A DNA stretch of 64,000 bases. Origin: Escherichia phage P896. The DNA is taken from the sequence record OL451225.1; one strand, given 5' to 3'. Positions 18,870-29,825 of this stretch are shown piece after piece. The position numbers and the translations under genes were made by a program. The first letter of the stretch is position 1. Every line of letters starts with the position of its first letter. The notes below the pieces were generated by a model. The model had not been told where the DNA came from, did not search any database, and saw only the letters and a program-made list of their open reading frames with translations.

Positions 18870-19190
18870 TTATAGCGTAATCCATTCTCGGATAGTTTGG
18901 GTTACGACACGTTCTTGGAGCTTAACCAGTTCAACAGTCGGGACCATATGGTCCCAGTCGGTATGATAAGAGCCGGTACGAGTTTCGTTTACAGCCACAT
19001 GCACATTATGTTTTTTGCTGAAATAAATTGCCTGGCGATATTGGTATTTGCCGGTTTGTGTCCATTCGCCTAATTCAACCGGAACCAGGTAGTCCGAAAA
19101 TTCAAACTCGTATGATTCAGTAAACGCATCATGGTCTTCAATGATTTCGCTTAAAACAGCATCAACATCTAATTCATTTTCAATAGTCAT
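18870..19190 (-). CDS. hypothetical protein, 106 aa
   Basis: ORF track; ATG start. Confidence 0.5.
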   Translation of the reverse strand: MTIENELDVDAVLSEIIEDHDAFTESYEFEFSDYLVPVELGEWTQTGKYQYRQAIYFSKKHNVHVAVNETRTGSYHTDWDHMVPTVELVKLQERVVTQTIREWITL

Positions 19191-19495
19191 TGGTCACTCC
19201 AATAGCTTGATACTTCAAAATCAGGCTCGCCGTTTTCCCAGTACCAAGGACCAACCGGATGCCAATCGCCATGCTTATCTTCTTCATATTCTTCAGATTC
19301 AAGCCCAACGTATTGCCATTGGACTTCATAAGCAGTGCCGCCGATTACAACAGTGTTCTCACCATACGGGTGAGCCACAGCAAAGTCAATACCTTCTGCT
19401 TTAGCCAACCAAACCATATATTCGTATAGTTTATATTCCAGGTCATCTTCGGTACCATCACCTAGAAAAATGGTTTGTTCGTTTAATTCAATCAT
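19187..19495 (-). CDS. hypothetical acidic protein, 102 aa
   Basis: ORF track; ATG start. Confidence 0.5.
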   Translation of the reverse strand: MIELNEQTIFLGDGTEDDLEYKLYEYMVWLAKAEGIDFAVAHPYGENTVVIGGTAYEVQWQYVGLESEEYEEDKHGDWHPVGPWYWENGEPDFEVSSYWSDQ

Positions 19496-19680
19496 AATTC
19501 CACCATAAATTCAAATAGCTGGTCACGTACACAAGTATCAGTCCAACCCCATTCGTTGGCTTCTTCTTTTAACCAATCCGGGAGATTTGCCAATACGGTT
19601 TCTTTACTAGGCGCGGGAGTATCAAACTCTCTCGTCAACTCTCTTGCGCAGGTTTTATAGGCCATATCAAATTCAGTCAT
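19492..19680 (-). CDS. hypothetical protein, 62 aa
   Basis: ORF track; ATG start. Confidence 0.45.
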   Translation of the reverse strand: MTEFDMAYKTCARELTREFDTPAPSKETVLANLPDWLKEEANEWGWTDTCVRDQLFEFMVEL

Positions 19681-19838
19681 TTAAAGTTCCAGAATGAAGC
19701 ACCAACCAGAAATAAAGGCCAACAAATCATAGACGTCAGCCACCAACAAAAGTCACCTGAATCATCTAATTTAGCTAGGGTCTTAGCATAACCAATACCG
19801 ATGATAAGATACAAAACAACCAACATTAATTCAATCAT
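19677..19838 (-). CDS. small membrane peptide, 53 aa
   Basis: Below ORF-track cutoff; both ends overlap neighbours by ATGA (coupled between nrdC and the next gene). Confidence 0.4.
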   Translation of the reverse strand: MIELMLVVLYLIIGIGYAKTLAKLDDSGDFCWWLTSMICWPLFLVGASFWNFK

Positions 19839-20098
19839 TTGAAATACGCTCGCAGTTGGTCAAAGCCACCAATATGACTTCCATCAGGGGCAAATACCTG
19901 TGGCAAGGTCAAACCAATTTGAGATTCACGACCAAGTGCCGCCAGGAGTTGAGCAATCTTCTCATCATCAAACACACCTTTTTCTGGCATAACGTTGATG
20001 AACTCGTAAGGTTGTTTTTTAACATCCAAAAAACGTTTTGCATTATCGCAGAATACACAGCGATGAATAGATGAATCATAACCATATACTTTAAACAT
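19835..20098 (-). CDS. nrdC: glutaredoxin/thioredoxin NrdC
   Basis: 87 aa; MFKVYGYDSSIHRCVFCDNAKRFL and C-terminal GLTLPQVFAPDGSHIGGFDQLRAYFK match recalled T4 NrdC closely. Confidence 0.88.
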   Translation of the reverse strand: MFKVYGYDSSIHRCVFCDNAKRFLDVKKQPYEFINVMPEKGVFDDEKIAQLLAALGRESQIGLTLPQVFAPDGSHIGGFDQLRAYFK

Positions 20099-20099
20099 A

Positions 20100-20342
20100 T
20101 TATTCCTTAATTCCTAATACTTGTTTGAAGGTCTCAGTATAATCGGGGTATTGACCGGTTTGTTCTTTATGTTTGACCATAATACCATAAACTTCTGAAC
20201 GCATATTATTATATGAACGAGTTAAAGCAGATTTCAATACTGAATAACTATCCGGAAGTTTACCGTGTTCTTTATAATAGGCCAGAGTTAATTCACGGAC
20301 CGCCTTATCAGCAGTCTCAAGATATTCTTTACGCTTTGCCAT
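20100..20342 (-). CDS. hypothetical protein, 80 aa
   Basis: ORF 20100..20357 begins on TTG; trimmed to ATG at 20342. Confidence 0.45.
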
Positions 20343-20622
20343 TTTCTTCTCGCTCAAATTTGTGTTTGCAATGTCTGCATTTATAACGAAGATTACTAGT
20401 CTGCCAATGGACTAACTGGACCTGTTCAGTTCCACATTCTGGACAGTTTGGAACGCTCTTAGAAGCACGTTCCCGGCGGCGAACCATAGCCATTACCATA
20501 TCCCAATCAGGAACCTGACTATAATCATCAGTCCAGTTTATAAGACCTTTATTAACCCCCGCTGCGGGGGTCCATTCTGGAAATGCAGTTTCTGCAATAT
20601 CTTCAGCTAAACGTTGTTTCAT
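20329..20622 (-). CDS. small zinc-ribbon protein (CPxCG...RYKCxHCxHKF)
   Basis: 97 aa with two Cys pairs resembling the Zn-ribbon of IS1595/InsA-type transposase N-termini; no transposase catalytic domain follows. Confidence 0.5.
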
Positions 20623-21608
20623 TTCAGCAGCTCCAGAGCTTGTTCCAGTTTATCCAGACGATTGGTTGATTCTTCCCAAAGTCGCTTGGCTTTAGTATAG
20701 TCTTCAGTTGCCTTTTTATTAACAGCAAGAGCTTTATTATACGCCATTTCCAGAGCAATAATTTCAGGCGCTTTTTGTTTCACTGGCTCATTGTTCAGAT
20801 TATCAATCAGGTCTTCAAGGGTGGTTTCTTGTGGTGCATTCATAATTTCCTCACTTTTCTTTTTATGGATTTCTGTAACAGTTGGTTGCTTTGCACATTT
20901 AACTTCGCGTAATGTCACCACAATTTTCCAACCTTTCCAACCATGAGTACTGGTGATAGGGTCTACTTTAATTTTTTCAACAGTGCGCATATAGTTAAGG
21001 GCACACACCAGCTGATGAGTAAGCGTACAGGCAACATCAAGATACTTTTTGACATTTTCTGGAGTAGCCACCGGCGTAAAGAACTCATGCTTAACTGTAA
21101 TAATTACCTGGTTTTCACCAGACTCTTTAACCTTTATCATGTGCTCAGCCAAATGGGAGATAGTGCGAAAATCACCGCCCATCAATTTTGTCGCTGATTT
21201 TATGATAGACATTTTATTATCTCTGAATTCACGAGCCCAGCAATGTGCGAATTCAGAAACAGTATAGCCTTGTTTATCAAGGTAGTATTTTTCAACATCG
21301 CCAAACCAATGATACCCAATTGTACCTTTACCGCGGTTGGATTCAACACCAAACTTATGAAGAAGGTCTTTATTAACCAGGTACGCCAGGACTCTGGAAC
21401 CTTTAAAAGTTTTCTTGATATCATCATTACCGGCACGACTCGCAATAGTTGCAATGTCTTTCTTGAAGCGACCAGATGCAACAATCGTCGAATCAATCTG
21501 ATTTAACCAATAATTGATAATTAAAAGGATAGCCGATTCGCCTGTCAATGGTTTTACTTTTGTGTCGATAGTTGCGTTAAAGGCCTGGATATATTCGTTA
21601 CGTGTCAT
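20619..21608 (-). CDS. hypothetical protein, 329 aa
   Basis: ORF track; ATG start; translationally coupled to the zinc-ribbon gene; no recognisable motif. Confidence 0.6.
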   Translation of the reverse strand: MTRNEYIQAFNATIDTKVKPLTGESAILLIINYWLNQIDSTIVASGRFKKDIATIASRAGNDDIKKTFKGSRVLAYLVNKDLLHKFGVESNRGKGTIGYHWFGDVEKYYLDKQGYTVSEFAHCWAREFRDNKMSIIKSATKLMGGDFRTISHLAEHMIKVKESGENQVIITVKHEFFTPVATPENVKKYLDVACTLTHQLVCALNYMRTVEKIKVDPITSTHGWKGWKIVVTLREVKCAKQPTVTEIHKKKSEEIMNAPQETTLEDLIDNLNNEPVKQKAPEIIALEMAYNKALAVNKKATEDYTKAKRLWEESTNRLDKLEQALELLK

Positions 21609-21629
21609 AGTGTTCTCCTCATAAAGTAG

Positions 21630-21670
21630 GAATTCATTATACTCCCTCCATCCTTGGAAGTAAACATTAT
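21630..21670 (-). promoter_or_regulatory. early promoter (-35 GTTTAC, 18-bp spacer, -10 TATAAT)
   Basis: Hexamers read on the minus strand just upstream of the 329-aa gene. Confidence 0.55.
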
Positions 21671-22572
21671 TTTAATGCTAAAATCGCCGCCTGCAATTTA
21701 TTGCGTTGTGTTTCCATGTTCTTGATGCGATTCAGAACATCCTGGATACCCTTTTTCTCATCTTCAATCAGACCATTTAAGCGGTTGACTGATTCCTGGA
21801 TAGCATCAGCATGATGTTTCTCAATAGGCTTCATTGATGGGTTAAAGATTCCAAGAGAGCTAGCCGGTTTGACTTTCCATTGGTACATATTTTTAACGTC
21901 CAGCGGTGAAATAGGCTGTGTTTTATATTGACCTGCAAATGCTGGACCATATGATGCGGATGATGCGATAGGGGTACGTTCTGTCATTTCTGGTTCCTTT
22001 TTCTCCTGATAAGGAGCGTAAGACAAAAGATATTCTTTAGTCAATTTAATATCAATGGTTATAGTTTTAAGGAATTTTTCCGTTTGGTGGATATAATTTG
22101 TATCTTCTTCAAACGTGTATGCTTCAACAGCATGGCGCATATAAAACAGCGCAATACCCATAACCTCTTTAAAGGTATCACAAAGAGCAACATCACCCTT
22201 GGTGGTTGGCTTGAACTTAATCTGCACACCATCATTCTTGATATTGATAATCAAGTTACTGGAGGTAAAATTATAGTTCTTGATGTTAACTGGAGCTTTA
22301 CGAATACGAAGTCCAGCTGCCAGGATTTCCTTGATACTCTTACGAACTGTGACACCAAACAAAAACGCAGGGCGGCGGCAGTAATCATTCAGAGAGTTAA
22401 TTCTTACAATACGTTGACCATACCCCTGGGTGGCAGAACCAGATTTGATTTTGCCAAAGTTAACCAGAGAATTCATCGCAATAAGACGGGTTGCACGTCC
22501 TTCACGCTGTTCAAATCGAGAATATTCTTTACGTGTTTTAATGTTCATATCAGAGTCCAAATAATTTTTCAT
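21667..22572 (-). CDS. hypothetical protein, about 300 aa
   Basis: ORF track; start uncertain (ATG at 22572 or 22548, neither with a strong RBS). Confidence 0.55.
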   Translation of the reverse strand: MKNYLDSDMNIKTRKEYSRFEQREGRATRLIAMNSLVNFGKIKSGSATQGYGQRIVRINSLNDYCRRPAFLFGVTVRKSIKEILAAGLRIRKAPVNIKNYNFTSSNLIINIKNDGVQIKFKPTTKGDVALCDTFKEVMGIALFYMRHAVEAYTFEEDTNYIHQTEKFLKTITIDIKLTKEYLLSYAPYQEKKEPEMTERTPIASSASYGPAFAGQYKTQPISPLDVKNMYQWKVKPASSLGIFNPSMKPIEKHHADAIQESVNRLNGLIEDEKKGIQDVLNRIKNMETQRNKLQAAILALK

Positions 22573-22765
22573 AGAGTTTAGCGATAGGCCACAGAATTAG
22601 CATACATAACCAGGCAAAGCAAAATACTGGCCATACAAATGTAATGAATACCGCATCATAGCTTGATTCAATTTTAACCGGGTTCCATGCGCCTGTTTTA
22701 TGCGCAATCAAAGCAGTAATAAATCCTATCACAAGATAAGCAAGAATAAAACCAATAATTTCCAT
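22550..22765 (-). CDS. small membrane protein, 71 aa
   Basis: ORF track; ATG start; two hydrophobic helices. Confidence 0.45.
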   Translation of the reverse strand: MEIIGFILAYLVIGFITALIAHKTGAWNPVKIESSYDAVFITFVWPVFCFAWLCMLILWPIAKLYEKLFGL

Positions 22766-22767
22766 AA

Positions 22768-23613
22768 TTAATCCTTAAGAAGATTTAGGATATCGATATA
22801 TTTCTGACGTTCAGCCTTGGCTTTAGCATTCAGACCGGAGAGTCGGAAAATCTCATCATCTTGTTGTTGAATTGTAACATTCAAGCAAGTAAGCAAATTG
22901 CTAAAATACTCAATCTGGGCTTGATGCTTCTCATTGCTTCGCACTGGAACAGGTTCCATTTTAGGAGCTTGTTCTGAAGAGTCTTCAGCCAGGTCTTTAA
23001 TTTTATAAAGTTTAATACGCTGACCTGCTCCAGTTTCGGCATCACCAAAACTAAGAACACCATGCTGTTCTAATTCAGACAAGGCCAATCGGAGATGGAA
23101 CTTCCAGTTGTCATATTGACAACCACTGTAATGGGAAATGGTATACTCATTTTCATTTCTGGGGTGGTTAACAATACTAAAGATAATCCAATCACCCGAA
23201 CCATTGGTTTTAAAGGTCATTTGTTTATCTTGACCTTTTGCAAGGCGAGCACCTAGTGCTAGTAAACGTCGTTGGTTGGCATGAAGGTCTTTAACCACTT
23301 CATCAAACGTCATGGTGTTAATCGCACGACCATAAAGGTCGTAGCCTTTGTTATATTTTTTAAGAATAATTTTGGCATTAGCACGAGACAACATACCTGT
23401 TTTACGAAGAGTTTTCATGACTCGGTCTTCTAACGTAAACGAACCTTTAGTCTTGTCAAAGATTTTAGTGAAGTCATTTTTAACAGTACAAACATTGAAC
23501 TTGTCCCACATCATATATAGAACCTTTTCAACCACTTCTTTAGAACTCGGGATACGACCAAATTTAATAACTTTTTTAACTTCAGAACGAATTTCATTAA
23601 TTGCTTGTGACAT
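22768..23613 (-). CDS. hypothetical protein, 281 aa
   Basis: ORF track; ATG with GAGGAAA RBS. Confidence 0.6.
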   Translation of the reverse strand: MSQAINEIRSEVKKVIKFGRIPSSKEVVEKVLYMMWDKFNVCTVKNDFTKIFDKTKGSFTLEDRVMKTLRKTGMLSRANAKIILKKYNKGYDLYGRAINTMTFDEVVKDLHANQRRLLALGARLAKGQDKQMTFKTNGSGDWIIFSIVNHPRNENEYTISHYSGCQYDNWKFHLRLALSELEQHGVLSFGDAETGAGQRIKLYKIKDLAEDSSEQAPKMEPVPVRSNEKHQAQIEYFSNLLTCLNVTIQQQDDEIFRLSGLNAKAKAERQKYIDILNLLKD

Positions 23614-23676
23614 AATAATTTCCTCAATAGATTAATCAAAGGTCAGAACCATTATACCATCCTTGGTATAAAGCGT

Positions 23677-24201
23677 TTATGCGAGAACCGTCTTTAAACG
23701 CTCTTCAAACTTCTGAAGGAGTACCTGGCGCTCTGCTCTTTGTTTGGTATAGGTTTCAATACGCTCTGAAGTGAGATTGTATTGTTCATTAACTGATTCC
23801 CTCATGAATTCAGGAATCTCTTTACACGCCTTGATTTCATTGAACTTATCAAGCACCGCTTGTTGTTCAGCAATCAGACCATCATAATATTGGATATCTG
23901 ATTTGATGTTTTGTACATCAGATTCAGTAGGCATATTTTTCTTCGCTCTTGTCGCTTGATATTCTGCATTAGTCTCTCTTGACCAGAACAAAGAGCGGTT
24001 TTTGTTGGTGTTTTTATACACATCAACAATACCAACTGAATCAACAGTCACAATCCAGTTCCAGGCGTTTTTATAAGTCTGACCACCTGATACTGTAATC
24101 TCACCTGCACAAGCAACATCATTAAAGAACTTGCTTTGCGCTTCTGATTTAAAATTACCATTATTGTAATTAATCAGATTAAAGATTGATTTTGCGTCCA
24201 T
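23677..24201 (-). CDS. hypothetical protein, 174 aa
   Basis: ORF track; ATG with GGAGAATAAA RBS. Confidence 0.55.
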   Translation of the reverse strand: MDAKSIFNLINYNNGNFKSEAQSKFFNDVACAGEITVSGGQTYKNAWNWIVTVDSVGIVDVYKNTNKNRSLFWSRETNAEYQATRAKKNMPTESDVQNIKSDIQYYDGLIAEQQAVLDKFNEIKACKEIPEFMRESVNEQYNLTSERIETYTKQRAERQVLLQKFEERLKTVLA

Positions 24202-24211
24202 TTTATTCTCC

Positions 24212-24268
24212 AGTATTTGGTAACTCAGTATGGGAACATTATACGTCTATCCCCATACTATGTACACA
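24212..24268 (-). promoter_or_regulatory. early promoter cassette, CAGTATGG class (inverted repeat AGTATGGG/CCCATACT around the -10)
   Basis: Repeat read directly; upstream of gene 23677..24201. Confidence 0.5.
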
Positions 24269-24269
24269 T

Positions 24270-24572
24270 TTAATTAAAAGTTCTTTCAGTATTTTCACCA
24301 CTGAACCAGACGCTCTTAACGGCTTGCTGGGCACGATGAAGCTGCTCTGCCATATAAACACCAAGGGCCTCGGCTTTACGTGTCCTGTGAGCTTCTGCGG
24401 CGACCATTTGCAGCTTATCCATCATGATAAGAGCTTTACATTTCTCCTTCAGAGCATATCGCTTCTTCTCTTCTGGAGTTTTGACCATTCCTCTTAACTT
24501 GTGCATTTTCAGCTTAAAATGGTCAGCAGATTTCAGACATGCATCAATCATGTCAAGTTCATACTTCTTCAT
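24270..24572 (-). CDS. hypothetical protein, 100 aa
   Basis: ORF track; ATG with GAGGAA RBS. Confidence 0.5.
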   Translation of the reverse strand: MKKYELDMIDACLKSADHFKLKMHKLRGMVKTPEEKKRYALKEKCKALIMMDKLQMVAAEAHRTRKAEALGVYMAEQLHRAQQAVKSVWFSGENTERTFN

Positions 24573-24578
24573 AATTCC

Positions 24579-24785
24579 TCACTTGCGACGACGTTTTGGT
24601 AATGGTTTAGGGAAGAACATTGCTTTACCTGCAGGGGTCAAAGTCACACGCAAAGCATTACCAATACCAAGGGATGCTTTAACCAGACCTTTGGCTTTTA
24701 ACTCACCAAATGCTTGACGTTGTTCAGGGTCACGAGTGTTAACCATCAGACCTTTTTCACCAGCAGCTTTGATTAATTCTAACAT
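24579..24785 (-). CDS. hypothetical basic protein, 68 aa
   Basis: ORF track; ATG with GGAGAATAAA RBS; C-terminal KRRRK tail. Confidence 0.45.
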   Translation of the reverse strand: MLELIKAAGEKGLMVNTRDPEQRQAFGELKAKGLVKASLGIGNALRVTLTPAGKAMFFPKPLPKRRRK

Positions 24786-24794
24786 TTTATTCTC

Positions 24795-24860
24795 CGTTTG
24801 TTTATTTGGTAACTCAGTATGGAATCATTATGCCTCATGACCATCTGGTTGTACATTACT
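24795..24860 (-). promoter_or_regulatory. early promoter cassette, CAGTATGG class
   Basis: Conserved TTGGTAACTCAGTATGGAATCATTATGC block on the plus strand; follows the terminator of the nucleotidyltransferase gene. Confidence 0.5.
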
Positions 24861-24892
24861 TTTTAAAATAAAAAAGGACCCCGAAGGGTCCT
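24861..24892 (-). terminator. intrinsic terminator GGACCC-UUCG-GGGUCC plus UUUUUUAUUUU
   Basis: Perfect 6-bp stem with UUCG loop and T-run on the minus strand, immediately after the stop of gene 24899..25909. Confidence 0.7.
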
Positions 24893-24898
24893 TAGAAT

Positions 24899-25909
24899 TT
24901 AACGATAATAGGAATTATGGTTGTCAAGATATACCTCTTCAACAAACTTGTCCCAGAACTTCATGTCCACCTTCGCAGGCATACCGTTCTTAGCAGCCTG
25001 AATGGCCAGGACTTCAACTTCATCGACGGTATTTTCCAACAGGCCTTGGACTACTTTAAAAGGCATATCACCAGCTTTTATTGCTTTAATAACAGAAGCA
25101 TTTTTAAGCGGATAAACCAAATCGCCGGTTTGATAGATTTCCTTCAACTGGTATCCAGCACGATAAGCATGGCTCAGAGCTTTCCAGTCAATACCTTCAT
25201 TGGCTTCTGCCTTACGAGCACGTTCACCATATTCGGCATCGAGCTTATTCAGAGATTGCTTGAGCTCGATTAAAGACAGGGTGGTTTGGTACTTACGTCC
25301 AAGAACAGTATAGAACGTTTGAGGACCTGTTTTCTCGTGGTTATGGAATACCCATTCACAGAACTCATTTTCAGGGAGTCTGTGTTTGATATCTTCTACC
25401 TTAGTGCGACGTTGCTTAGTCGAACCGTCTTCTTGATAATCGACCCACTGTTCAGGAATCTGGTTAACGATTGTCAGTACACCACGCAGTGCAGCCAATC
25501 GAGAACCTTTAACACCATATTTGGAAGCTTGCTTACGGACATACCCCAAATAGGCTTTCATGTTAGTTGTATAGAACCGCGAACGGTTATCCTGAATAAA
25601 CTTCCATACATCTGGTAAATCGGATTTGACAACCAGGTCAGCCGGTGTGTGAATCATGTCCAGGGCAACGGTTTCGCCATCGGCTGCCAGTTTAAAGAAA
25701 TATTTCAGACTATAAAGTTCATGGTCAACATCATCTTTTGTATTTTTGGTAGCCGTGTTATTCGTGTTCAGGTTTGTATGGTTCATCGCGGTTCCGAGCA
25801 GGATATCTCGCGGATGAGGAACGAAGATTTCTTTAAAATCAACATCAGATTCCGGAGTACTTGTTCCATAAAGGTGGGAGCCAAAATATCCCTTCATAAC
25901 AGTTCTCAT
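24899..25909 (-). CDS. Pol-beta-superfamily nucleotidyltransferase, 336 aa
   Basis: N-terminal GS-x10-DVD (YFGSHLYGTSTPESDVDF), the minimal nucleotidyltransferase motif; ATG with GAGGA RBS. Confidence 0.6.
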   Translation of the reverse strand: MRTVMKGYFGSHLYGTSTPESDVDFKEIFVPHPRDILLGTAMNHTNLNTNNTATKNTKDDVDHELYSLKYFFKLAADGETVALDMIHTPADLVVKSDLPDVWKFIQDNRSRFYTTNMKAYLGYVRKQASKYGVKGSRLAALRGVLTIVNQIPEQWVDYQEDGSTKQRRTKVEDIKHRLPENEFCEWVFHNHEKTGPQTFYTVLGRKYQTTLSLIELKQSLNKLDAEYGERARKAEANEGIDWKALSHAYRAGYQLKEIYQTGDLVYPLKNASVIKAIKAGDMPFKVVQGLLENTVDEVEVLAIQAAKNGMPAKVDMKFWDKFVEEVYLDNHNSYYR

Positions 25910-26358
25910 TTTTTGTCCTCGAAGTGGATTACCGGACAGACCTTAGATTTACGAGCTTTAATGTACTGGATAACAATGTTTTCTTTAATTTCCTTTCCTT
26001 CACGTTTAGCTTTAATTAGTTGCCATTCCTTTTCTTCTTTACGTAAATCATACCAGGCCCATAAACTCATTATACAATACACAATACCAACGGCTACCGC
26101 TAGAATAAGGGCCAGTGTAACCAGTCCTAAAATAAAACCTAAACTTAAACCAACAGGAGTACTCAATACAAAGAAATGCTCTAATACACCAGCACCTGCA
26201 ACAGTTAAGCCGAAAATAGTACTACCTGCAAGCACAGAACACATAAAGCACGCCCAAACCATTTTCCAGAAGTATGCGCATAATGAGCGCGGACGCGAAT
26301 AACTGGCATAAAAACGGTCGTGTAGTTTAACGTGCCAAGAGTTTGTATTGATAATCAT
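25906..26358 (-). CDS. membrane protein, 150 aa, coupled to the nucleotidyltransferase gene
   Basis: Two to three hydrophobic helices then a charged C-terminal tail; stop overlaps the nucleotidyltransferase start by 4 nt; AAGGAAAA RBS. Confidence 0.55.
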   Translation of the reverse strand: MIINTNSWHVKLHDRFYASYSRPRSLCAYFWKMVWACFMCSVLAGSTIFGLTVAGAGVLEHFFVLSTPVGLSLGFILGLVTLALILAVAVGIVYCIMSLWAWYDLRKEEKEWQLIKAKREGKEIKENIVIQYIKARKSKVCPVIHFEDKK

Positions 26359-26368
26359 AATATTTTCC

Positions 26369-26929
26369 TTAAGAGTTCATAGTTGGGATAACAGAGTTCA
26401 GATAAGAGACTAAAACTTTTAGCTCGTCTTTAGTAAATACAACTTCACTTTCACCGTCATGTCTTTGGACAATGGACAACAAGTCACGGCCGTTATGTTG
26501 ATGCACAGTCAGTTCAGTATTATAATCTAATTCCTCTTCATCGCCTTCAAACGTTTCGCTAGAGCGAATCAGTGCGTCTTGACCAGGGACTTTCCATTCA
26601 ACTTCTGGCTTGCATTCTTCCTGGAACAGTTTGAAAATACAATCAAAGAATTTATCAGAATCGCTGATGCTCAGACATTCAATACCATTTTCTAAATTAA
26701 ACCCGTTTTCGTTTTTATAGATATAGGCATACATATCATCATTGATATCAACAGGAGCACTAGCACGACCATTAAGATAATCGTGTCTATCCAAAACCAT
26801 TAAATCATAAAGCGGTTTAATATCAGCGATAGTCAGTACGATTTTATCGTCTTCTTGACAAAGCTCAATTGCGTTATTAACTACTTCAGCGGTCAGTTCG
26901 CCAAACAATTCAGTTGTTTCAATAATCAT
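26369..26929 (-). CDS. hypothetical acidic protein, 186 aa
   Basis: ORF track; ATG start. Confidence 0.55.
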   Translation of the reverse strand: MIIETTELFGELTAEVVNNAIELCQEDDKIVLTIADIKPLYDLMVLDRHDYLNGRASAPVDINDDMYAYIYKNENGFNLENGIECLSISDSDKFFDCIFKLFQEECKPEVEWKVPGQDALIRSSETFEGDEEELDYNTELTVHQHNGRDLLSIVQRHDGESEVVFTKDELKVLVSYLNSVIPTMNS

Positions 26930-26939
26930 TTTCTGTTCC

Positions 26940-27155
26940 TCAACGGTTATGTTTTAAAATACTATAAAGAGCTTCTACTTGGCTTGCATCCAGGTAAATA
27001 ACATCATCATCTTGCTCAATGGAAATCCCACCAGTATTACCTTTAACAAAATTACATTCGCACACTTCAACTGGACGGTATACGTCACCAACTGGATGCT
27101 CAGGCTCCAGAACAATCACACCATTTTCAGAATTACCACTTGGGTCATATAACAT
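26940..27155 (-). CDS. hypothetical protein, 71 aa
   Basis: ORF 26940..27230 begins on TTG; trimmed to ATG at 27155 with GAGGAAA RBS. Confidence 0.4.
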   Translation of the reverse strand: MLYDPSGNSENGVIVLEPEHPVGDVYRPVEVCECNFVKGNTGGISIEQDDDVIYLDASQVEALYSILKHNR

Positions 27156-27246
27156 TACAGTTTCCTCGCTAACCATGAAAAGAATAAACCAATTAAAACA
27201 GGCCCTACAGCCATTGTTAACCAAGCCCAAGGTTCAAGATAGTAAA

Positions 27247-27504
27247 TCATCTCATGCTCCTATGCCAACAGTTTCTTGGCTCACGTTTAAAAATTTCATC
27301 ATGCATTGATTGACAACCAACACAATATATCACGCCTTTAATCGCTTGTCTCCGCGCTTCAGGAATTTTTTCGTCGCAGTCAAAACAGAATTCAGCAGAC
27401 TCCCTTTCAACTGCAACTTGTGCTCTCGCATGGGTGATAGCGGCCTGTACAACCGCTTCCATCTCTAACTGTTCAGCACCATCTTTTGCAAATCCAACAG
27501 CCAT
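27247..27504 (-). CDS. TraR/DksA-family C4 zinc-finger protein, 85 aa
   Basis: CFDCDEKIPEARRQAIKGVIYCVGCQ matches the TraR/DksA C4 signature (C-x2-C-x3-IPxxR-x9-C-x2-C). Confidence 0.6.
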   Translation of the reverse strand: MAVGFAKDGAEQLEMEAVVQAAITHARAQVAVERESAEFCFDCDEKIPEARRQAIKGVIYCVGCQSMHDEIFKREPRNCWHRSMR

Positions 27505-27686
27505 TATTCTTTCAACCCATTCAGATAAGCAATTAATTCTTCTTTAGAGCTCTTTAAATCGCGCTCACATACTTCTACCCCAGAATATGAATAACCTTCG
27601 CAATGTTCAACAGCTAGTTCATAAGAGTTGATTTCAACATCACGAGCAAGTTTAAGGATTTTTTCAATCTGTTCAATAGTTAACAT
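27504..27686 (-). CDS. hypothetical protein, 60 aa
   Basis: ORF track; ATG start. Confidence 0.4.
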   Translation of the reverse strand: MLTIEQIEKILKLARDVEINSYELAVEHCEGYSYSGVEVCERDLKSSKEELIAYLNGLKE

Positions 27687-27690
27687 AATG

Positions 27691-27927
27691 TCACCAGTAT
27701 TTGTTAATGTTAGAAATCAATTCTTGGACTTGTGTGTTTTTCAGCTTGCACCCGCAACTTTTTAATGTTTCTTTAAAAAGCTCAACATCTTTAAGTTGTT
27801 CCTTTTCTAGGCGGATTCTATATCCTCTGTAATCAGCAAATATGCTTCTGTCATCAAATATCTTAATTTCAAGAATATGATTATTGGTTTCATATTCCAA
27901 TGAAACCATGGTATTTGTAAGTTTCAT
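27691..27927 (-). CDS. hypothetical protein, 78 aa
   Basis: ORF track; ATG start. Confidence 0.45.
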   Translation of the reverse strand: MKLTNTMVSLEYETNNHILEIKIFDDRSIFADYRGYRIRLEKEQLKDVELFKETLKSCGCKLKNTQVQELISNINKYW

Positions 27928-28130
27928 TATTCCACCACATATGATAATGAGAAAATTGCTGATGAAAGATGGGTAGCATCTTCTTCACACAGTTCAAATG
28001 GAGCTTTCTGTAAGAGTTCAACCACTTCTTCATCAGTGACACTGTCCATAAAGATTGCATAATCATTAAGATAGATAACAACCTCATCACCAGTATTAAC
28101 TGCATCAATCTTGATATTTTTAATTCTCAT
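27927..28130 (-). CDS. hypothetical acidic protein, 67 aa
   Basis: ORF track; ATG start. Confidence 0.45.
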   Translation of the reverse strand: MRIKNIKIDAVNTGDEVVIYLNDYAIFMDSVTDEEVVELLQKAPFELCEEDATHLSSAIFSLSYVVE

Positions 28131-28140
28131 TGTGTTCTCC

Positions 28141-28195
28141 TCAGTAGTTGATGGGATAATAGTACACCCTTTTTATGGTGATGTAAACCCCTAAA
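28141..28195 (-). promoter_or_regulatory. early promoter cassette (-35 GTTTACA, 17-bp spacer, -10 TACTAT, leader ATTATCCCATCAACTACTGAGGAGA)
   Basis: Read on the minus strand upstream of gene 27927..28130. Confidence 0.55.
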
Positions 28196-28202
28196 TGAAA
28201 AA

Positions 28203-28228
28203 AGGTCCACCCGAAGGCAGACCTTTTG
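28203..28228 (-). terminator. hairpin with UUCG loop followed by UUUUUUCAUUU
   Basis: Imperfect 8-bp stem (two G-U pairs) plus T-run directly after the stop of gene 28231..28614. Confidence 0.5.
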
Positions 28229-28230
28229 AA

Positions 28231-28614
28231 TTACTCTAGTGTTAACAGATACTTAGTCTGAAAGAAAACTCCAACGATATCGTCCAGAGTCGATTGAATA
28301 GCCTTGGGTACAACTTTATAGACTCTTTCCGAGCTTTTAATCATTTCATCTAAAAACAAAATTGTATCTTTCGGCAAGTCCGAGGCGGACGGTAATGCAG
28401 CTTTGTATTGTTTCCCGCTGTAACCTAACCATTGCTCACTGAACTGGTCGAGTGGACCTTGGATTTCTGTGAAGTAGAAATCATAAGCTTTATGGCGGGC
28501 GTAACTTTTGGTTTCAAGATGGGCGGACTTAAAATAAGCCAAAGAGACTAACAACCACCCAATATATGAATCCACCTCAGACCCACGACCCGTTACGAAA
28601 TCATCAAATTTCAT
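28231..28614 (-). CDS. hypothetical protein, 127 aa
   Basis: ORF track; ATG start. Confidence 0.5.
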   Translation of the reverse strand: MKFDDFVTGRGSEVDSYIGWLLVSLAYFKSAHLETKSYARHKAYDFYFTEIQGPLDQFSEQWLGYSGKQYKAALPSASDLPKDTILFLDEMIKSSERVYKVVPKAIQSTLDDIVGVFFQTKYLLTLE

Positions 28615-28897
28615 CTTCCAATTTTACCTTCATTAATTTAGCGTACTCTCTCGCCGCAGCTTTACCATCGCTTTTGCAGGTAATTTCAGTTTCGCATTGG
28701 CTTTTGTTGTTCCATTCAGTCTTGATAAACGCCCAGAACTGTTCGGATTGGTGCACGCTTGGTTCTTTGAATTGCGAATAAATCTTCATCGCACTATCTG
28801 CATATTGGGTAAACTTCCCCTCTGTTGCAGAGGACAGATTTGGGCCTAAACAACCCAGGAGTATTAGACTTAATGAAAGTCCTCGAATAAGGTCCAT
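28604..28897 (-). CDS. rI: lysis-inhibition regulator RI-like periplasmic protein
   Basis: 97 aa with signal-anchor; SEQFWAFIKTEW, conserved Cys pair and YAKLMKVKLEDE resemble recalled T4 RI; position upstream of tk as in T4. Confidence 0.55.
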   Translation of the reverse strand: MDLIRGLSLSLILLGCLGPNLSSATEGKFTQYADSAMKIYSQFKEPSVHQSEQFWAFIKTEWNNKSQCETEITCKSDGKAAAREYAKLMKVKLEDEI

Positions 28898-28969
28898 AAG
28901 GACTCCTATTGTTGGTCATGATTACGCTTTGCAGCCTTAACATAGCGGAATACTAGTTAGTAACTGTAT

Positions 28970-29245
28970 TTATAGACGTTTAAAATTAAAGCAATACTCT
29001 GAAAATAAACTTGCAAAATTACGTTCAACCCAGACCCGTTGTTTTGGACTGGTAATCGTTGACAAATAGTATGCTTGTTGCAGGCTTATTCCGTTTTTAT
29101 TGGGGCACTCTTTGTTGAACGAGTGATAGGTACTTGCAACGATTTCGACTTCGCGCTCATACCTTTCCTGGTCCTGTTGCATAGGAACAAAAACCAAAAC
29201 CAGGAATATCAAAATAGAGATATACGTCCAAACCTTGTATACCAT
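28970..29245 (-). CDS. small membrane protein, 91 aa
   Basis: ORF track; N-terminal hydrophobic helix. Confidence 0.45.
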   Translation of the reverse strand: MVYKVWTYISILIFLVLVFVPMQQDQERYEREVEIVASTYHSFNKECPNKNGISLQQAYYLSTITSPKQRVWVERNFASLFSEYCFNFKRL

Positions 29246-29252
29246 GCGAACC

Positions 29253-29825
29253 TCAGCTTGTTAATTCGAGCCAATGTTTTCTGCACAAAGATACGTACGA
29301 TTCATTCCCACCGACCAATACTTGCTCGCCGTCCTTTACAGCAGCACCGTCGATTACTCGAGCGGTCATGGTTGCTTTCCGGCCGCAATGACAGACGCCC
29401 TTTAATTCAACCAGTTTATCCGAAATAGCCAGAAGTCTGGCCGAACCGGGAAATAATTGACCCCGAAAATCTGTTCTTAACCCGTAACACATAACGGGGA
29501 TATTGTAATTATCAACCACTTGAGCTAACTGGTCAATTTGCTCTGGTAACAAAAATTGAGCTTCATCGACCAGGACACAATGGATATCCTTTTGAGACTC
29601 GGCCCATTTATAGAATTCAAACAGGTTCATGTCGGCCGTTACCAGGTTTGCTTCCTGGCTAATACCAATGCGTGATTTAATTTCAGATTCCGAGTCCCGA
29701 TTATCAATAACAGGTTTTAGCAAAAGCACACTCATTCCACGCTCTTTATAGGAATAAGCTGCAGTCAGCAATGAAGCTGTTTTGCCTGCATTCATTGCTG
29801 CGTAATGATAAATTAAACTCGCCAT
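29253..29825 (-). CDS. tk: thymidine kinase
   Basis: 190 aa; P-loop MNAGKTASLL, VDEAQF, C-terminal zinc ribbon CxCG; matches recalled T4 Tk. Confidence 0.93.
   Translation of the reverse strand: MASLIYHYAAMNAGKTASLLTAAYSYKERGMSVLLLKPVIDNRDSESEIKSRIGISQEANLVTADMNLFEFYKWAESQKDIHCVLVDEAQFLLPEQIDQLAQVVDNYNIPVMCYGLRTDFRGQLFPGSARLLAISDKLVELKGVCHCGRKATMTARVIDGAAVKDGEQVLVGGNESYVSLCRKHWLELTS

Follow-up and report, generated by a model that had tools for sequence, protein, structure and literature searches.

The nrdC–rI interval of Escherichia phage P896: a Gaprivervirus version of the T4 accessory region with a probable role in counter-defence

Recent analyses of anti-phage defence have begun to assign functions to the genes between nrdC and rI, a region which is standard in T4-like genomes and whose counterpart in Escherichia phage P896 is the subject of the present study. 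In T4 the uncharacterised early gene nrdC.5 was found to restore infection of cells which carry Dsr1, a sirtuin defence from E. coli ECOR17 (PMC9391042) reported to sense the major capsid protein of the phage by means of a sensor domain which it has in common with Avs7 (PMC13581612), and nrdC.1 was described as a bona fide Septu inhibitor in a transposon-sequencing preprint (10.1101/2025.11.20.689424). A genome-reduced T4 which had lost nrdC.1-6 and nrdC.11-mobD.3 was still viable (PMC9825161). Bacterial RlaP enzymes (Pseudomonas) were shown to extend RNA 3' ends by one or two nucleotides and to help restore damaged tRNA, and T4 NrdC.11 was placed in their family, PF10127, by the same authors (PMC12776372, 2025 preprint). 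Promoter-early stem-loop (PeSL) elements with the consensus TTTACW-N17-TAYWAT are known from T4-type phages (PMC4122927), and their behaviour in hyperplastic regions has been described (PMC2839356, PMC4122927; Arbiol et al. 2010, Comeau et al. 2014).

The window, i.e. the whole stretch of DNA that was analysed, comprises 64,000 nt of phage P896 (OL451225.1), and the block in question extends over positions 20100-28130 (8,031 bp). It is the known, dispensable-type nrdC.1-mobD.5 accessory (‘hyperplastic’) region in its Gaprivervirus version, hence ordinary, already sequenced and partly characterised, and the finding is no discovery; its dispensability would be carried over from T4, for which alone it has been reported. 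With a probability of roughly 80% we read the block as an early-expressed, recombination-prone accessory island for counter-defence and host takeover and not for housekeeping. It holds orthologs of two anti-defence genes identified recently together with a conserved enzyme of RNA-repair type; furthermore, two of its large proteins, and probably a third, are paralogous to an anti-defence protein already known and are ranked candidates for anti-defence testing, and the paralog array with its zinc-ribbon partner provides a concrete hypothesis for a larger remaining block of T4 ‘dark matter’.

Gene content between nrdC and rI

In T4 (NC_000866, 48393-58722) 19 genes are annotated over 10.3 kb between nrdC and rI.-1, namely nrdC.1 to nrdC.11, mobD and mobD.1 to mobD.5, and five of the encoded proteins exceed 270 amino acids (aa), so that the handful of small nrdC-linked open reading frames (ORFs) which a first-pass annotation of P896 had supposed for T4 does not describe the region. 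That annotation had also regarded the block as a set of novel genes and none of its proteins as matchable to a T4 function; however, blastp of every ORF against the T4 proteins identified collinear T4 orthologs for 11 of the 17 block genes (E 3e-8 to 0), and the block as such is present in VR20, VR7, SP18 and 212. Six ORFs (71, 68, 150, 71/96, 85 and 78 aa) had no T4 homolog by blastp, but all six were found in VR7, VR20, SP18 or JS98, and by these comparisons none of the genes is unique to this stretch. What the annotation had catalogued was nevertheless accurate: the zinc ribbon, the proteins of 329, 301, 281, 174 and 186 aa, the nucleotidyltransferase pair and the zinc finger are all present as placed, and the flanks are nrdC and rI, with rI.-1 in between.

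All 17 ORFs lie on the minus strand. With overlaps counted twice, they add up to 7,629 nt in a block of 8,031 bp, a coding density of about 95%, and most adjacent genes abut or share 1-4 nt. Each of them matched a PHROG family (E <= 5e-21), and they are therefore considered real genes and not chance ORFs. Position on a single strand between nrdC and rI.-1, rI and tk (Tk 71% identical to T4 Tk) is that of the T4-type region. Presence matrices and gene-order strings were compiled for 37-39 related loci, and family alignments were built from 37 of them; a second search for homologs, based on a family alignment, brought in just three further clusters. Gene content varied across these loci against conserved flanks, as in a T4-type accessory region; the comparison across related phages which had been proposed thus recovered the block in relatives, with variable content and mosaic alleles. 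The source phage itself is Gaprivervirus-like by sequence. The genes and their flanks are as follows, percentages being identities to the T4 proteins.

19835-20098, nrdC, flanking the block: 84% to T4 NrdC, Glutaredoxin family match.
20100..20342, minus strand, nrdC.1 ortholog, abutting nrdC: 79% over 80 aa, E 7e-44; phrog_2052; 80 aa from ATG, the 85-aa version from TTG at 20357 being less likely.
20329..20622, minus strand, nrdC.2 ortholog, 97 aa, zinc ribbon CxxC-x18-CxxC: 62% to T4 NrdC.2; weak zinc-ribbon Pfam matches.
20619..21608, minus strand, nrdC.4 ortholog, 329 aa: 47% to T4 NrdC.4 (E 5e-106), 25% to T4 NrdC.3 (E 2e-6).
21667..22572, minus strand, nrdC.5 ortholog, DUF7235, 301 aa (more likely 293 aa, starting with Met9 at 22548): 28%, E 2e-26; PF23882 E 1.9e-115.
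22550..22765, minus strand, 71-aa membrane protein: phrog_7899; no T4 counterpart.
22768..23613, minus strand, nrdC.6 ortholog, 281 aa: 46% to T4 NrdC.6.
23677..24201, minus strand, nrdC.8 ortholog, 174 aa: 67% to T4 NrdC.8, E 3e-89.
24270..24572, minus strand, nrdC.9 ortholog, DUF7203, 100 aa: PF23833 E 1e-18; 37.5% over 56 aa, E 3e-8.
24579..24785, minus strand, 68-aa ORF: phrog_6001 E 4.5e-40; no T4 counterpart; in 6/37 loci; RB69 and VR7 have a matching hypothetical protein in their annotation.
24899..25909, minus strand, nrdC.11 ortholog, nucleotidyltransferase, 336 aa: 81% to T4 NrdC.11.
25906..26358, minus strand, 150-aa membrane protein with three transmembrane segments: phrog_944; no T4 counterpart, T4 having mobD at that position.
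26369..26929, minus strand, mobD.1 ortholog, 186 aa: 33%; PF24449 E 6e-37 and PF24448 E 1.6e-19, labelled in Pfam as N and C domains of a ‘y05I-like putative transcription factor’.
26940..27155, minus strand, DUF7189 protein: PF23819 E 8e-32, on residues 26-96 of the 96-aa version; 71 aa from ATG (also 71 aa in the VR7 annotation), the 96-aa TTG start at 27230 being unlikely; no T4 counterpart.
27247..27504, minus strand, YbiI-like DksA/TraR C4 zinc finger, 85 aa: PF01258; no T4 counterpart.
27504..27686, minus strand, mobD.3 ortholog, DUF7438, 60 aa: 63% to T4 MobD.3; PF24219.
27691..27927, minus strand, 78-aa ORF: phrog_10363 E 4e-52; in 10/37 loci; no T4 counterpart.
27927..28130, minus strand, mobD.5 ortholog, 67 aa: 54% to T4 MobD.5, E 2e-17.
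28231-28614, rI.-1 ortholog, between the block and rI: 56%.
28604-28897, rI, flanking the block: Pfam Antiholin, 32% to T4 RI.

An Rfam search of 19500-29500 found no RNA family. In the paper on DRT1, nrdC.8 figures only as a down-regulated transcript, without a function. The 68-aa protein (24579-24785) ends in a basic tail, KPLPKRRRK, and looks winged-helix-like by eye, without a supporting family match. Product names in related GenBank records were copied from locus names, ‘thioredoxin’ standing on many nrdC.x genes including that of NrdC.11, and in RefSeq T4 49.2 is named ‘ribonucleotide reductase’ and mobD.4 ‘molybdopterin-guanine dinucleotide biosynthesis protein MobD’.

Orthologs of reported counter-defence genes, paralogs and proposed partner proteins

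The NrdC.5 ortholog reached 386 bits against PF23882 (30-bit cutoff), residues 1-301 aligning with profile positions 1-307, and T4 NrdC.5 reached 420.6 bits (E 5e-126). By analogy with the T4 gene it would neutralise the SIR2 NADase of Dsr1, most likely by binding Dsr1 directly. The block NrdC.1 is a close full-length relative of T4 NrdC.1 adjoining nrdC and, again judged from T4, would inhibit Septu; T6 NrdC.1 had no effect on OLD (PMC13096335). The earlier guess of host-takeover or counter-defence functions is thereby borne out for part of the block, through T4 nrdC.5 (Dsr1), T4 nrdC.1 (Septu) and the deletability of the region; for that part it was right in kind, the evidence coming from T4 orthologs, the very genes taken not to exist when it was made. 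No confident homology to housekeeping functions emerged, the homologies found being to accessory genes. Beyond nrdC lie orthologs of gp49.2 (18870-19190, minus strand, 75% to T4) and gp49.3 (19187-19495, minus strand, 77% to T4). T6 Gp49.2 inhibits OLD (PMC13096335), and reported anti-defence genes are therefore located on both sides of nrdC.

Profile-profile comparison with hhalign linked NrdC.3 with NrdC.4 (probability 97.8%), NrdC.4 with NrdC.5 (97.7%, E 2.5e-12, 290 columns) and NrdC.3 with NrdC.5 (95.1%), homology extending over most of the length of all three. The cross-family alignments span the N-terminal domain plus the C-terminal helix and therefore link more than coiled-coil composition. 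Iterative searches with hidden Markov models (HMMs) under a strict inclusion threshold reached one common set of about 80 proteins, whether started from NrdC.4, NrdC.5 or NrdC.6. By these profiles the 329-aa (NrdC.4) and 301-aa (NrdC.5) proteins belong as paralogs to a single superfamily restricted to phages, NrdC.3/4/5, of which the 281-aa NrdC.6 is probably a more distant member; NrdC.4 and probably NrdC.6, as diverged paralogs of NrdC.5, may target other host factors. NrdC.8 and NrdC.10 were rejected as members, since iterative HMM searches seeded from them stayed closed, and the C-terminal motif was rejected as the sole link between the paralogs, since C-terminal HMMs were weak and full-length profiles were needed. 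An exhaustive HMMER search of 1.84 billion proteins with the DUF7235 profile retrieved seven representatives, all from T4-like phages, and no bacterial homolog hinting at a function, and PDB sequence searches with NrdC.4 and MobD.1 gave no or chance matches only.

Klebsiella-, Enterobacter- and Salmonella-type relatives have a single superfamily copy; three are present in P896 as well as in JS98- and RB69-like phages, and T4 has four. Identity of NrdC.4, NrdC.5 and NrdC.6 to T4 is 28-47%, compared with 81-84% for NrdC.11 and NrdC, and their distribution is patchy (15-19 of 37 loci, compared with 35-37 of 37 for NrdC.2 and NrdC.11); low identity and patchiness together may be read as the signature of an arms race, which favours counter-defence. 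In some phages members are broken up into two ORFs, examples being SP18 NrdC.5 (locus L038, 7568-8472), a T4-like contig (200 + 158 aa) and a Klebsiella-type contig (149 + 182 aa; both among L010 and L018), which suggests frequent inactivation. The reference T4 NrdC.6 (L002, 4567-5394) has a C-terminus which differs from, and is shorter than, that in the close T4-like contigs L009, L011 and L034; this looks like a frameshift which removed the conserved C-terminal helix.

Between nrdC.4 and the zinc-ribbon gene nrdC.2, whose coupling had been noted in the first-pass annotation, stop and start codons overlap (ATGA), and the last paralog overlaps the nrdC.2 start by 4 nt in the same manner in 25 of 30 loci. 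Four cysteines (CxxC...CxxC) are kept in all 35 NrdC.2 homologs. From gene order, the zinc ribbon and the last paralog are a conserved, translationally coupled module, in which NrdC.2 may act as the partner of that paralog. It is possible, albeit rather doubtful, that NrdC.3/4/5/6 constitute a diversifying, phage-restricted family of immune-sensor inhibitors, with a single copy in Klebsiella- and Enterobacter-type phages and a tandem expansion to three or four in coliphages. Each copy would then be adapted to its own host defence protein, Dsr1 in the case of NrdC.5; such proteins would share the C-terminal coiled coil, work with the co-translated NrdC.2 and swap alleles via the promoter cassettes. 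Within the block, only the paralog family with its zinc-ribbon partner was not found described in the literature; the two are to be taken as a lead and not as a discovery.

No gene of the block is more widely conserved than that of NrdC.11, which is present in 37 of 37 loci and in 1,513 phage records. The protein scored 44.5 bits against the RlaP family PF10127 (23-bit cutoff), covering only profile positions 25-142 of 249, and G10, S11, D22, D24 and D84 were invariant in 27 homologs (65-96% identity). By their pattern these residues are the Pol-beta nucleotidyltransferase signature, G[SG]...DxD plus a third acidic residue. From the biochemistry of the family NrdC.11 would be expected to extend damaged RNA 3' ends by one or two nucleotides, as RlaP does, and we infer that this chemistry complements phage tRNA repair enzymes. 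Foldseek with the weak NrdC.11 model gave no match below E 0.2 in the PDB, and a PDB sequence search none. Neighbours of NrdC.11 are a transmembrane protein and a small ORF, and the stop of the 150-aa membrane-protein gene overlaps the nrdC.11 start by 4 nt. The two were rejected as a universal pair, being adjacent only in coliphage-type genera. In VR26 the mobD HNH homing endonuclease gene separates the 150-aa membrane-protein gene from nrdC.11; in T4, mobD (L002, 8930-9709) occupies the place of the membrane-protein gene, and in T4-like contigs without mobD (L005) a 27-32% identical membrane protein is found in that place.

The 85-aa zinc finger scored 36.3 bits against PF01258 (24.9-bit cutoff), and its four cysteines are kept in 19 of 19 homologs. 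A full-length alignment was obtained with E. coli YbiI (2KGO) at E 1.2e-9, the match to TraR being weaker (E 8e-5). Binding of RNA polymerase is a plausible role by family resemblance, the host enzyme being the probable target.

Promoter cassettes and mosaic alleles

The presence of promoter cassettes and terminators, as annotated beforehand, was recovered in the form of two strong terminators and promoter-like sites in five intergenic gaps:

28159..28227, minus strand: terminator (28227-28200; 12-bp stem, TTCG loop) and early-promoter-like site TTTACA-17-TACTAT, PeSL-type, at the start of the block.
24827..24893, minus strand: terminator (24893-24874) and early-promoter-like site (24855-24827, TGTACA-17-CATAAT), PeSL-type.
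24238..24266, minus strand: promoter-like site upstream of nrdC.8, its -10 and 5' untranslated region (5'UTR) being repeated at 24803-24836.
23614..23676, intergenic, minus strand: middle-promoter-like cassette CGCTTTA-12-TATAAT upstream of nrdC.6.
21636..21664, minus strand: early-promoter-like site TTTACT-17-TATAAT upstream of nrdC.4.

Two of the five gaps thus hold full terminator composites and three have no terminator. The composite at 28227-28159 matches the PeSL consensus exactly and that at 24893-24827 partially; the T4 mobD.5 promoter has been mapped (PMC1702504). Consensus promoter matches totalled 34 compared with 27.1 +/- 5.7 in shuffles, which is not significantly higher, and it is their placement in gaps that is informative. 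The cassettes are repeated among each other: a 34-nt repeat of 88% identity joins 24214-24247 (-10 and 5'UTR of nrdC.8) with 24803-24836, and the spacer of the nrdC.6 cassette recurs in the nrdC.4 promoter. Ribosome-binding segments are repeated as well (21598-21621 and 28120-28143), repeats being 83-88% identical, and several Shine-Dalgarno sequences of the block include GGAG, the target motif of the RegB endoribonuclease. Under the preferred reading the 17 compact genes would be read from these repeated early and middle cassettes, bounded by the two terminator/promoter composites.

Neighbouring genes follow different relatives. For nrdC.6 and the 71-aa gene, DNA identity is 97-100% with SP18, 94-100% with one JS98-type phage and only 73-79% with the VR7 type; for the 71-aa transmembrane gene alone, identity is 100% to SP18 and a JS98-type phage and about 75% to the VR7 type. 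nrdC.4 and nrdC.5 show the reverse pattern for the JS98 type, with VR7/SP18-type alleles. The mobD.3 allele (27504-27686) has 74-82% DNA identity to all 12 relatives compared, whereas its neighbours reach 96-100% to some of them; its source lineage would lie outside the loci compared. Intergenic promoter segments, that upstream of nrdC.4 included, remain 90-100% identical even between phages in which blastn no longer aligns the adjoining genes. Similarity of 97% to SP18 stops at 24869, within a slot (24786-24898) which is empty here and in VR20, holds one ORF in 212 and two in VR7, VR25, SP18 and VR26, and is occupied by nrdC.10 in JS98-type phages and T4. By comparison of these genomes, the slot is an indel hot spot at a PeSL-type cassette, in agreement with what has been described for PeSL elements in hyperplastic regions (PMC2839356, PMC4122927), and the cassettes could serve as homologous joints for the exchange of alleles and small ORFs between related phages.

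Competing readings and comparison with described systems

Several observations weigh against a counter-defence island. Nine of the 17 genes offer no functional clue, and the functions proposed for the block would be carried over from T4 and from family data. At 28% identity the anti-Dsr1 activity of the block NrdC.5 may not be conserved, and the Septu result for nrdC.1 comes from a preprint. The direct hhalign match of NrdC.6 is weak (NrdC.5 with NrdC.6, E 0.003), and its membership depends on iterative profiles, which can drift via coiled-coil segments. A Pfam search of the 17 proteins detected no RNA ligase or kinase-phosphatase domain, nor has NrdC.11 an RNA-ligase neighbour. The DxxDxA motif of the N-terminal helix, with which TraR homologs reach the RNA polymerase active site (PMC9239242), is absent from the 85-aa zinc-finger protein, whose N-terminus, MAVGFAKDGAEQLEME, gives D-x-x-E-x-L; on account of this and of its best match the protein was classed as YbiI-like. 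AlphaFold2 yielded a predicted local distance difference test (pLDDT) score of 57.6 for the NrdC.5 ortholog (30-sequence alignment), sufficient for the general layout only, in which a disordered linker connects an alpha/beta domain with a long C-terminal helix, and 70.5 for NrdC.11 with the catalytic N-terminal core unfolded (pLDDT ~30). Both predictions are poor because the alignments are shallow, and fold searches on the predicted models were uninformative. Of the remote-homology and structure analyses suggested by the first-pass annotation, the former thus delivered ortholog and paralog links, whereas the structure models and fold searches did not contribute.

If the block served mainly as equipment for host takeover and phage physiology, NrdC.3-6 would be regulators or scaffolds and the Dsr1 effect indirect. 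This would agree with the ‘putative transcription factor’ domains of MobD.1, with the YbiI/TraR-like zinc finger and with the presence of the RlaP nucleotidyltransferase in all genera sampled, which resembles a general more than a host-specific function; however, two of the T4 orthologs were identified through loss or gain of plating on defence-carrying hosts, and the paralogs diverge fast, are patchy, often pseudogenised and deletable in T4, so that we hold this explanation to be unlikely. The comparison with T4 and VR20 refutes a set of novel, phage-specific genes standing in for some small T4 ORFs: a T4 homolog is lacking by blastp for six of the 17 ORFs and a Pfam family for several large proteins, but T4 itself has 19 genes over 10.3 kb, 11 of the genes are collinear orthologs, 212 is 96.6% identical and the six extra genes recur in relatives.

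Names in the databases invite two further explanations. Genes named mobD.1-5, and a mobD HNH endonuclease beside nrdC.11 in T4 and VR26, could mark the block as cargo of a mobile homing-endonuclease element, but the block has no mobD and no endonuclease domain, mobD.x genes occur in many phages without mobD, and neither a flanking endonuclease ORF nor a target-site duplication was seen, which makes such an origin highly improbable. The label ‘thioredoxin’, carried by up to nine of the matched genes in related records including that of NrdC.11, would point to thioredoxin-related or nucleotide-metabolism genes. It was, however, propagated from the nrdC.x locus names, and as none of the 17 proteins matches thioredoxin, glutaredoxin or ribonucleotide reductase families, NrdC alone matching Glutaredoxin, this explanation is refuted. 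An accessory island for counter-defence and host takeover remains the preferred reading, and its components may be set beside the described systems as follows.

The block NrdC.5 shares with T4 NrdC.5 (Srikant, Guegler and Laub 2022) a full-length Pfam family, the position between nrdC.6 and nrdC.4 and a C-terminal helix ending ...KLxxAxxALK, but is only 28% identical to that assayed protein. NrdC.11 has the Pol-beta signature in common with PfRlaP and PaRlaP; it differs in belonging to cluster 5 and not 1a, in matching the N-terminal half of the RlaP Pfam profile only and in being translationally coupled to a membrane protein. The 85-aa protein shares the four-cysteine finger and an IPEARR motif with E. 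coli YbiI and F-plasmid TraR. With PeSL systems the block has in common a stem-loop followed by a promoter, the setting in a hyperplastic region and flanked ORFs which differ between relatives; it differs in having only two full composites, and recombination is here deduced from mosaicism.

As a whole, the block agrees with the T4 region in its flanks (nrdC; rI.-1, rI, tk), strand, gene order and 11 orthologs at 28-81%, and has similar early promoters, but it is shorter (8.0 kb compared with 10.3 kb) and nrdC.3, nrdC.7, nrdC.10, mobD, mobD.2/2a and mobD.4 are missing. Closer still are the Gapriverviruses VR20, VR7, VR25, VR26, SP18 and 212, to which it corresponds gene for gene save for the small ORFs at 24786-24898: DNA identity to Escherichia phage 212 is 96.6% with the entire block (100%) covered, the genes of VR20 are in identical order, and in VR7, with 87% DNA identity, the genes are already named nrdC.1...mobD.5.

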